64,000 nt of DNA from Escherichia coli. GTDB taxonomy: Bacteria > Pseudomonadota > Gammaproteobacteria > Enterobacterales > Enterobacteriaceae. Both the position numbers and the translations under genes were made by a program. Where the stretch lies: the NCBI RefSeq assembly GCF_044647545.1, contig NZ_CP172818.1; one strand, written 5' to 3'. Positions 43,342 to 47,461 of the stretch are shown here, piece by piece (the stretch's first letter is position 1; every line of letters begins with the position of its first letter). The notes under the pieces are model-generated. The model was not told where the DNA came from, searched no databases, and saw nothing but the letters and a program-made list of their open reading frames with translations.

Positions 43342-44292
43342 ATGAACGAGTTAGACGGCATCAAACAGTTCACCACTGTCGTGGCAGACAGCGGCGATAT
43401 TGAGTCCATTCGCCATTATCATCCCCAGGATGCCACCACCAATCCTTCGCTGTTACTCAAGGCTGCCGGATTATCACAATATGAGCATTTAATAGACGAT
43501 GCTATCGCCTGGGGTAAAAAAAATGGCAAGACCCAGGAACAACAGGTGGTCGCTGCATGTGACAAACTGGCGGTCAATTTCGGTACTGAAATTCTCAAAA
43601 TCGTACCCGGTCGCGTGTCAACAGAAGTTGATGCACGCCTCTCTTTTGATAAAGAAAAGAGTATTGAGAAGGCGCGCCATCTGGTGGACTTGTATCAGCA
43701 ACAAGGCGTTGAGAAATCACGCATTTTGATCAAGCTGGCTTCAACCTGGGAAGGAATTCGCGCGGCAGAAGAGCTGGAAAAAGAAGGTATTAACTGCAAC
43801 CTGACGCTGCTGTTTTCTTTTGCTCAGGCGCGGGCCTGTGCAGAAGCAGGCGTTTTTCTGATTTCGCCGTTTGTCGGGCGTATTTATGACTGGTATCAGG
43901 CGCGTAAGCCGATGGACCCGTATGTGGTGGAAGAAGATCCGGGCGTTAAGTCAGTGCGCAATATCTACGACTACTATAAGCAACACCACTACGAAACCAT
44001 TGTAATGGGCGCGAGCTTCCGTCGCACCGAACAAATCCTCGCCTTAACCGGCTGCGACCGACTGACTATCGCACCGAATTTGCTGAAGGAGCTACAGGAA
44101 AAAGTTTCGCCAGTGGTACGTAAATTAATCCCATCTTCTCAGACGTTCCCACGCCCAGCTCCCATGAGCGAAGCGGAGTTCCGTTGGGAGCACAATCAGG
44201 ATGCGATGGCGGTAGAAAAACTGTCTGAAGGCATTCGTCTATTCGCCGTTGATCAACGCAAACTGGAAGATCTTCTTGCCGCCAAACTATAA
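43342..44292 (+). CDS. talA: transaldolase A (316 aa)
   Basis: [44 protein letters not shown]... Confidence 0.97.
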
Positions 44293-44311
44293 ACCAGCCA
44301 CGGAGTGTTAT

Positions 44312-46315
44312 ATGTCCCGAAAAGACCTTGCCAATGCGATTCGCGCACTCAGTATGGATGCGGTGCAAAAAGCCAATTCTGGTCATCCCGGCGCGCCGAT
44401 GGGCATGGCCGATATTGCCGAAGTGCTGTGGAACGATTTTCTTAAACATAACCCTACCGACCCAACCTGGTATGATCGCGACCGCTTTATTCTTTCCAAC
44501 GGTCACGCGTCGATGCTGCTCTACAGTTTGCTGCATCTGACCGGTTACGACCTGCCGCTGGAAGAACTGAAGAACTTCCGTCAGTTGCATTCGAAAACCC
44601 CAGGCCACCCGGAAATCGGCTATACGCCTGGTGTTGAAACCACCACCGGTCCACTTGGACAAGGTTTGGCGAACGCCGTCGGGCTGGCGATAGCAGAGCG
44701 TACGCTGGCGGCGCAGTTTAACCAGCCAGATCATGAAATTGTCGATCACTTCACCTATGTGTTTATGGGCGACGGCTGCCTGATGGAAGGTATTTCCCAC
44801 GAAGTCTGTTCGCTGGCGGGCACGCTGGGACTGGGCAAGCTGATTGGTTTTTACGATCACAACGGTATTTCCATCGACGGTGAAACCGAAGGCTGGTTTA
44901 CCGACGATACAGCAAAACGTTTTGAAGCCTATCACTGGCATGTGATCCACGAGATCGACGGTCACGATCCGCAGGCGGTGAAGGAAGCGATCCTTGAAGC
45001 GCAAAGCGTGAAAGATAAGCCGTCGCTGATTATCTGCCGTACGGTGATTGGCTTTGGTTCGCCGAATAAAGCAGGTAAGGAAGAGGCGCACGGCGCACCA
45101 CTGGGGGAAGAAGAAGTGGCGCTGGCACGGCAAAAACTGGGCTGGCACCATCCGCCATTTGAGATCCCTAAAGAGATTTATCACGCCTGGGATGCCCGCG
45201 AAAAAGGCGAAAAAGCGCAGCAGAGCTGGAATGAGAAGTTTGCCGCCTATAAAAAGGCTCATCCGCAACTGGCAGAAGAGTTTACCCGTCGGATGAGCGG
45301 TGGTTTACCGAAGGACTGGGAGAAAACGACTCAGAAATATATCAATGAGTTGCAGGCGAATCCGGCGAAAATCGCTACCCGTAAGGCTTCGCAAAATACG
45401 CTTAACGCTTACGGGCCTATGCTACCGGAGCTGCTCGGCGGTTCGGCGGATCTGGCTCCCAGCAACCTGACCATCTGGAAAGGTTCTGTGTCGCTGAAGG
45501 AGGATCCGGCGGGCAACTACATTCACTACGGGGTGCGGGAATTTGGCATGACCGCTATCGCCAACGGCATTGCGCACCACGGCGGCTTTGTGCCGTATAC
45601 CGCGACATTCCTGATGTTTGTTGAATACGCCCGTAACGCCGCGCGGATGGCGGCACTGATGAAAGCGCGGCAGATTATGGTTTATACCCACGACTCAATT
45701 GGCCTGGGCGAAGATGGTCCTACGCACCAGGCTGTTGAGCAACTGGCCAGTCTGCGCTTAACGCCAAATTTCAGCACCTGGCGACCGTGCGATCAGGTGG
45801 AAGCAGCGGTGGGCTGGAAGCTGGCGGTTGAGCGCCACAACGGACCGACGGCACTGATCCTCTCCAGGCAGAATCTGGCCCAGGTGGAACGTACGCCGGA
45901 TCAGGTTAAAGAGATTGCTCGTGGCGGTTATGTACTGAAAGACAGCGGCGGTAAGCCAGATATTATTTTGATTGCCACCGGTTCAGAGATGGAAATCACC
46001 CTGCAAGCGGCAGAGAAATTAGCGGGAGAAGGTCGCAATGTACGCGTAGTTTCCCTGCCCTCGACCGATATTTTCGACGCCCAGGATGAGGAATATCGGG
46101 AGTCGGTGTTGCCTTCTAACGTTGCGGCTCGCGTAGCGGTGGAAGCAGGCATCGCCGATTACTGGTACAAGTATGTTGGTCTGAAAGGGGCAATTGTCGG
46201 GATGACAGGTTATGGGGAATCTGCTCCGGCGGATAAGCTGTTCCCGTTCTTTGGCTTTACCGCCGAGAATATTGTGGCAAAAGCGCATAAGGTGCTGGGA
46301 GTGAAAGGTGCCTGA
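44312..46315 (+). CDS. tktB: transketolase 2 (667 aa)
   Basis: ORF track 44249..46315; start taken at [40 protein letters not shown]...; ATG at 44312-44314. Confidence 0.97.
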
Positions 46316-46340
46316 TGGTGATCGCCGGATGCTGTATGTT

Positions 46341-46396
46341 CCCCTCACCCTAACCCTCTCCCCAGAGGGGCGAGGGGACGGTCCGTGCGCTTTTTA
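46341..46396. repeat. GC-rich imperfect palindromic intergenic element, possibly also the tktB terminator
   Basis: cccctcaccctaaccctctccccagaggggcgaggggacggtccgtgcgcttttt: nested imperfect inverted repeats followed by T5; resembles a recurring E. coli intergenic motif but was not matched to a named family. Confidence 0.4.
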
Positions 46397-46417
46397 GGGC
46401 CGCATCTGCGATTTTGT

Positions 46418-47461
46418 TTAACGGGTGATCCACAACGTGGGCCAGGCGTCTGGCCCATGCCAGTTATCGCAGGTGGGTTCTGCGGCGTAACGCACCAGGC
46501 GAAAACGCTGACCGTCAAAGCGCCAGCGCGCCTGAATGCCACAATCGCTTAATCCGCGCCCTTTCGCTAAGGTCACCAGTTCACGCGATTTTTCATCGAA
46601 TGTTGCGTTCATCAGTTCCAGTTCATTCGTCTCCTGACCGTTGTTGAACGGCAAACGCAACCGAACCGGGCGCGAGGCTAGCGGCTTTTTACGCGACACA
46701 ATCCATGCCAAATCAATGGTGTTATAGGCCCCTGCCTCACAGCTAATCATCATCAGTGCTTTATCATCGGTCAGCGCAGTGACATTCACCTCACGACGTA
46801 ACGGATCAAGCGAGCAGCGCAGACCATTCATCCGCCAGTTTCCATAATCCAGCAAATCGTTGCGTTCTTCGAGTGAGAGTGGCGTCGGCGTTGGGTTAAC
46901 CACCGCGACCTCTTTCAGCGCAGGCGCAGGCGGTACGCTGAGCGGCGGTTCGTCCCCTTTCTTTATCCACGCGGTTTCACTGCCAACGCGCTTTTGCTGA
47001 GCATCAATAAACAACAACGCCGCTTTTAAGCCATTCAGAGAAATGGTCTGATTGCCATCGCGTAAGGTGATTGCCTTCCCTTCCTGAATCAGCTGCAAAA
47101 ACGCGGTGATGGTTGCCGTATCATCGGTTACTAGTAACCATGGTGAAATTCGCCACTTGTCACCACTTAACGCCAACGGCTCACCATCTAACAGCAGCCG
47201 TGGCGCTATCTCCCCTTCAGACGCATCCGGCGACTTCAACCCGCCGCGCTCAATACGTAAAACGGCATCGGTATGCGCCCCGGCGCTGCGGCTCAGGGTC
47301 ATCACCAGTCCATTATGATCGCCCGTATTGCGCGCTACACAGAAATTTTGGTTATTACAGGTAACCTGCCAGTCGGAAAACGCCCGTTGCGCTGGTGCCG
47401 CCCACACCAAAGACGTCGGCAACAAAGCGAAAAAAAAGAGAAGGAAAATGCGATAGCGCAT
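46418..47461 (-). CDS. ypfG: DUF1176 periplasmic protein YpfG (347 aa)
   Basis: MRYRIFLLFFFALLPTSLVWAAPAQRAFSDWQVTCNNQNFCVARNTG...; signal peptide. Confidence 0.9.
   Translation of the reverse strand: MRYRIFLLFFFALLPTSLVWAAPAQRAFSDWQVTCNNQNFCVARNTGDHNGLVMTLSRSAGAHTDAVLRIERGGLKSPDASEGEIAPRLLLDGEPLALSGDKWRISPWLLVTDDTATITAFLQLIQEGKAITLRDGNQTISLNGLKAALLFIDAQQKRVGSETAWIKKGDEPPLSVPPAPALKEVAVVNPTPTPLSLEERNDLLDYGNWRMNGLRCSLDPLRREVNVTALTDDKALMMISCEAGAYNTIDLAWIVSRKKPLASRPVRLRLPFNNGQETNELELMNATFDEKSRELVTLAKGRGLSDCGIQARWRFDGQRFRLVRYAAEPTCDNWHGPDAWPTLWITR

Follow-up and report, generated by a model that had tools for sequence, protein, structure and literature searches.

The GC-rich palindrome downstream of tktB in Escherichia coli is very probably an ordinary BoxC (PIT, TMECO) repeat and most likely not a terminator

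The name BoxC reportedly goes back to the 1990s and to the work of Bergler et al. and Bachellier et al. The classical BoxC of Petrillo-type surveys is a unit of 56 bp with about 32 copies. The PIT element (Hoyne et al. 2000; Hoyne & Maher 2002) and TMECO (Holder et al. 2015, PMC4666352) belong to the same literature, and Holder et al. treat TMECO, BoxC and the PIT element of Maher's group as one element. The TMECO consensus is 5′-CCCTCNCCC-N3-6-GGGNGAGGG-N3-GGGNGAGGG (PMC4666352). Oligonucleotides of its type A mm form an intrastrand purine-motif triplex in vitro, as seen by CD and NMR, with a Tm of 70–82 °C, and the triplex was not detected by DMS footprinting in vivo (PMC4666352). In vitro, TMECO elements reportedly block DNA polymerase, and in comparisons between strains their loci vary more than control loci do (PMC4666352). 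The motifs showed no association with the orientation or function of flanking genes (PMC4666352). As relayed in that paper, Hoyne & Maher observed neither promoter nor terminator activity of PIT elements and no effect on RNA polymerase. The only demonstrated property of this class of elements is structural, in vitro.

We analysed a stretch of 64,000 nucleotides of an E. coli genome (NZ_CP172818.1, in assembly GCF_044647545.1), here called the window. The gene order around the palindrome is maeB (minus strand), talA (plus), tktB (plus, 44249–46315), ypfG (minus, 46418–47461), nudK and aegA. The genes tktB and ypfG are convergent, and the 102-nt spacer between them is filled by a repeat. This repeat is very probably an ordinary solo type-A BoxC (PIT, TMECO) element, G-rich on the minus strand, that is non-coding and vertically inherited and most likely does not terminate transcription. 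Its parts are listed in Table 1.

Table 1. Parts of the repeat between tktB and ypfG, in coordinates of the window
Feature	Position	Strand	Basis
tktB stop codon TGA	46313–46315	+	sequence
Left spacer flank TGGTGATCGCCGGATGCTGT, includes GCCGGATGC	46316–46335	+	allele and family alignments
9-mer GCCGGATGC	46324–46332	+	sequence
Full BoxC unit: TGTTC leader, 36-nt three-block core and tail ACGGTCCGTGCGCTTTTTAG (plus strand)	46330–46398	-	family profile, K-12 alignment
TMECO/PIT core, 36 nt, CCCTCGCCCCTCTGGGGAGAGGGTTAGGGTGAGGGG on minus strand; 'type A mm' (TTA second loop, one mismatched triplet)	46341–46376	-	published regular expression, table identity
C-rich block CCCCTCACCC	46341–46350	+	sequence
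Second G-rich stem GGGTGAGGG (minus strand)	46342–46350	-	regular expression, RNA and DNA minimum-energy folds
Spacer TAA	46351–46353	+	sequence
Second C-rich block CCCTCTCCCC	46354–46363	+	sequence
First G-rich stem GGGAGAGGG (minus strand); Watson-Crick with C stem, one G.A mismatch	46354–46362	-	regular expression, DNA fold
Spacer AGA	46364–46366	+	sequence
G-rich block GGGGCGAGGGG	46367–46377	+	sequence
C-rich stem CCCTCGCCC (minus strand)	46368–46376	-	regular-expression match and published motif description
4+4 palindrome ACGGTCCGT	46378–46386	+	sequence
Family tail ACGGTCCGTGCGC and T5 (46391–46395)	46378–46395	+	K-12 consensus ACyGtcCGtGCgC(T)TTTT; inside profile match
GCGC	46387–46390	+	sequence
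T5 run TTTTT	46391–46395	+	sequence
Right spacer flank, reaches ypfG stop codon	46399–46417	+	allele and family alignments

The original prediction had described nested imperfect inverted repeats followed by T5 at 46341–46396, and these were present: the quoted string lies at 46341–46395, with an A at 46396, and a repeat search of the window found arms at 46340–46350 and 46368–46378 that are 91% complementary and fold on each other. Either of the two C-rich blocks can pair with the G-rich block, and both the RNA and the DNA folds choose the outer arms. The stretch ACGGTCCGT is a 4+4 palindrome with a loop of 1 nt and therefore forms no hairpin by itself. For the G-rich strand, the DNA fold of ViennaRNA predicted the hairpin alone, at -12.4 kcal/mol. 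The second G-rich stem is the proposed third strand of the triplex, or else an alternative Watson-Crick partner for the C-rich stem.

Folding energy separated the element only modestly from dinucleotide shuffles (z = -1.1 for the plus strand and -2.4 for the minus strand, and also -1.8), as is expected of GC-rich sequence. These weak scores would suit a chance palindrome in a GC-rich spacer, with neither family nor function. The probability of such a palindrome is negligible in view of the occurrence of the motif, which exceeds chance by far. A regular expression of the TMECO consensus matched the window once, at 46342–46376 on the minus strand, and a 26-mer from the original prediction also matched it once; neither had a match in 100 shuffles. 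The core is identical to published members, copies occupy 81,925 places in E. coli genomes, and the family profile described below gave an E-value of 1.7e-23.

The identity with published members is complete over the core. The 36-mer is letter for letter the sequence of K-12 entries 9, 16, 19 and 22, 'type A mm', in Table 1 of PMC4666352. When 13 loci were fetched by their published K-12 coordinates, all 13 proved to be intergenic BoxC copies. Aligned with their flanks, these copies had in common TGTTC, the core and the tail ACyGtcCGtGCgC, and some had weaker extensions on both sides; a T run of at least 4 followed the tail in 5 of the 13. The alignment thus gave no sign that the copies have nothing in common beyond chance. 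An nhmmer profile built only from the 13 K-12 type-A copies had a single match in the window, at 46330–46398 (77.7 bits). Together with the alignment, this match extends the homology beyond the core to the whole BoxC unit, and the 56-nt span of the original prediction is thus essentially the classical BoxC unit.

The distribution of copies is also that of BoxC. A blastn search with a 65-mer found the repeat in 5,425 of 5,426 complete E. coli genomes, with 17 places per genome as the median, which rules out the absence of other copies; only 45 of the 81,925 places were on plasmids. The copy studied here, between the stop codons of tktB and ypfG, belongs to a repeat that is dispersed, multi-copy, intergenic and chromosomal. 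It resembles the described family in its core, leader and tail with T run as well as in its setting, and the element itself differs from the family in nothing; what differs is the locus, which holds a REP in K-12 and in about 85% of E. coli.

This very locus is on record: the BoxC of strain ABU 83972 is entry 520 in Table S8 of Holder et al. (NC_017631: 2823098–2823063), and we confirmed its position between tkt and ypfG, so the exact locus had already been catalogued. Earlier publications thus cover the family (characterised biophysically in 2000–2015), the structure and genome-wide distribution of its members, and this exact locus. The single TMECO of B2 strains such as UTI89 was considered as another copy of this locus and ruled out, as in UTI89 it lies at 562046 and has a CTGT loop. 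Two small open reading frames over the element (46345–46542 on the minus strand and 46385–46552 on the plus strand) were rejected, as both overlap ypfG and RefSeq records have no annotation under the element. A scan of 45800–46900 against Rfam in E-value mode returned only sub-threshold chance matches, the best being Antizyme_FSE at 22 bits against a gathering threshold of 40, and this interval thus contains no known RNA family.

The original prediction had also suspected an intergenic repeat family other than REP, and the regular expression, the table identity and the K-12 profile all place it in BoxC/PIT/TMECO. REP or BIME (PU) sequences are likewise GC-rich imperfect palindromes in 3′ intergenic spacers, and REPs fill this slot in other strains. 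Their core is unrelated to that of BoxC, and a single REP stem stands against the three C/G/G blocks of BoxC. As the original prediction stated, the canonical REP consensus does not fit: the REP head pattern GCCKGATGCGRCGY, with at most 1 mismatch, was absent from 46316–46417, where only the 9-mer GCCGGATGC is in common with the REP head. This 9-mer had been taken for a partial REP-like sequence. It is indeed kept in the REP alleles of the spacer, but in the family alignment it also falls on the left extension of other BoxC copies, which is weakly conserved. Elsewhere in the window the same pattern, again with at most 1 mismatch, occurs at five sites (10893, 32298, 35254, 57670 and 62339), with 0.3 expected.

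The spacer is polymorphic. In K-12 MG1655, the spacer between tktB and ypfG has no BoxC and carries REP sequence in its place. A census of 5,426 E. coli genomes with junction-spanning queries gave three alleles: the BoxC allele, with a spacer of 102 nt, in 817 genomes (15%), its carriers including ABU 83972, A0 34/86 and ST648 isolates; a K-12-type REP allele with an 18-nt duplication, with a spacer of 94 nt, in 3,446 genomes (63.5%); and a single-REP allele, with a spacer of 76 nt, in most of the remaining genomes (about 21%). The alleles differ only in the middle and have in common the left flank through GATYGCCGGATGCTG and, on the right, ATTTTGTTTAA. The left flank is common to BoxC and REP alleles except for its last base, 46335, and is similar to the left extension of some BoxC copies. 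In the right flank, GCCGCATCTGC is similar both to the right extension of BoxC and to a REP arm.

A scan of genome contigs with a wobble-degenerate pattern of the tktB C-terminus found two outgroup loci only, in Escherichia sp. E1V33 and in E. whittamii, with tktB about 92.5% identical in each. E1V33 carries an orthologous BoxC in which TTTTC takes the place of T5; its 5 substitutions and one 3-nt indel all lie outside the stems. Such perfect conservation of the stems could hint at constraint; it is not significant, having a chance of about 19% with 5 substitutions. The spacer of E. whittamii holds two REPs, with GCCGCATCCGCC at the matching position. With BoxC in E1V33 and REP in E. whittamii, the polymorphism is trans-specific, and so it is old or has moved between species. 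The outgroup pair does not polarise BoxC against REP.

These alleles might be read as the result of a recent MITE-like insertion of BoxC into a REP, which would leave GCCGGATGC and GCCGCATCTGC (46401–46411) as the split REP arms. The two flanks are partly complementary and REP-like, and the sequence at the matching position in E. whittamii also speaks in favour. We regard a recent insertion as exceedingly unlikely. The copy has an ortholog in a species at 92.5% tktB identity and is therefore old, these flanks have counterparts in the extended arms of BoxC copies at other loci, neither a target-site duplication nor an empty site was found, and plasmid copies are almost absent. The behaviour of other BoxC loci is also against it. 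BoxC was present between zntA and tusA in 4,574 and between aaeR and tldD in 5,415 of the 5,426 genomes, and these genomes had no empty site at either locus, no insertion boundary and no target duplication. In some lineages slippage had deleted 12 nt of the aaeR-tldD copy and with them one of its C-rich direct repeats, CCCTCACCCTAA, which turns the three-block structure into a plain hairpin; in others, a single C-to-T change in the zntA-tusA copy breaks the strict motif. Such decay in place explains the low strict-motif counts in some strains of Holder et al. (PMC4666352). Loci that are nearly universal and decay in place argue against recent mobility, and the element would be a vertically inherited, non-coding dispersed repeat.

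In a canonical intrinsic terminator, a GC-rich stem-loop is followed by the U-tract after 0–2 nt. The original prediction proposed that the palindrome doubles as the tktB terminator, in which case the hairpin and T5 would release RNA polymerase at about 46395, independently of Rho. The element does resemble such terminators: a strong GC-rich hairpin is predicted to end at 46378, T5 is nearby, and the whole lies 25 nt past the tktB stop codon, between convergent genes. The geometry is different, as the T run begins 12 nt after the stem, and a consensus terminator scan of 46000–46800 on both strands found no site. The tail ACGGTCCGTGCGCTTTTT lies within the match to the K-12 profile, and T5 is thus inherited family sequence rather than a terminator tail specific to this locus. 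In the E1V33 ortholog, this run is not conserved as T5.

The same T5 tail is found in a copy in the pstA-pstB spacer of K-12 (NC_000913.3 3908495–3908530), in the same orientation to the transcript. This spacer is inside the pstSCAB-phoU operon, where read-through is required, and the copy in it thus serves as a natural control for read-through. The reported lack of terminator activity of PIT elements points the same way. That the element is an intrinsic terminator of tktB is thus very unlikely, and the mapped 3′ ends of K-12 transcripts add to this.

BoxC copies were compared with the K-12 3′ ends that Adams et al. 2021 (PMC7815308) list in their curated Term-seq tables. There was no 3′ end at any K-12 BoxC copy checked, K-12 having no BoxC at tktB, and the ends that are listed lie downstream of the copies. 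The adk 3′ end at 497939/40 has a canonical hairpin and U-tract of its own, about 60 nt past BoxC no. 6. Nine other BoxC loci had no 3′ end listed within about 100 nt, to which low expression may contribute. The frlR BoxC, a copy in the same orientation as the one studied here, is followed after about 80 nt by a Rho termination region at 3504972 (NC_000913.3, about 3504857–3504972). In this region the RNA strand carries the C-rich half of BoxC. The co-location may be fortuitous, or it may hint at a contribution of the C-rich tract to the loading of Rho.

Downstream of tktB, the plus-strand 3′ end of K-12 is at NC_000913.3:2581778, 139 nt past the stop codon and beyond the spacer. Within ypfG, the hairpin GGGCCAGGCGTCTGGCCC precedes this end by 6 nt; the missing U-tract points to Rho or processing. 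The same hairpin is present in the window at 46439–46456, in the 3′-terminal part of ypfG, and the position equivalent to the K-12 end is 46462. By analogy with K-12, tktB transcripts probably extend about 147 nt past the stop codon and end here, at a hairpin separate from the repeat; the equivalent of 46462 is probably the real tktB 3′ end, Rho-dependent or trimmed. The Term-seq evidence comes from K-12, which carries REP here, and the BoxC allele may allow weak or partial termination or pausing. The T5 would merely be part of the conserved family tail of a BoxC that most likely does not terminate.

A role at the RNA level would be of another kind. The tktB transcript would read the element as its C-rich strand and would carry the predicted hairpin in its 3′ untranslated region, where it might slow exonucleases in the manner of a REP. 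In such an accessory role for tktB, the C-rich, G-poor 5′ half (CCCCUCACCCUAACCCUCUCCCC) would act as a rut-like loading site for Rho, or the hairpin would give REP-like protection from exonucleases, and any structured repeat would suffice. The Rho region downstream of the frlR BoxC, the K-12 tktB 3′ end that has no U-tract, and the constant occupation of the slot by a repeat that can form a hairpin (BoxC or REP, in E. coli as well as in E1V33 and E. whittamii) are consistent with this role. We consider it unlikely. The C-rich tract is predicted to be paired with the G-rich block, which would disfavour binding of Rho; the co-location at frlR is single and anecdotal; and the survey of Holder et al. 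(PMC4666352) turned up no link of the motifs with the orientation or function of flanking genes.

A related idea is that the tktB-ypfG spacer is selected as a slot for a structured repeat, where the unrelated BoxC and REP alternate at the same boundaries and are swapped by template switching at the GCCGGATGC microhomology. This, too, is improbable. If it were true, the repeat would give an RNA-level function, such as protection of the 3′ end, loading of Rho or insulation of convergent transcription, for which either family would suffice.

At the DNA level, a BoxC element would act through its G-rich strand. In single-stranded form, its three blocks of 9–10 nt (C-G-G) would form a very stable hairpin and a third strand. 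The plus strand of the window had negative GC skew in 7 of 8 bins, which makes the minus strand, the G-rich one, the probable lagging-strand template; it would then be transiently single-stranded at the replication fork.

For annotation, the value of these results is that the element should be labelled BoxC/PIT/TMECO and not terminator. The best explanation of the element is that it is structurally active but functionally neutral or selfish, with no demonstrated benefit to the host. The three alleles of the spacer (BoxC, single REP and duplicated REP) provide a natural series for testing the effects of such repeats on mRNA 3′ ends and on local stability.
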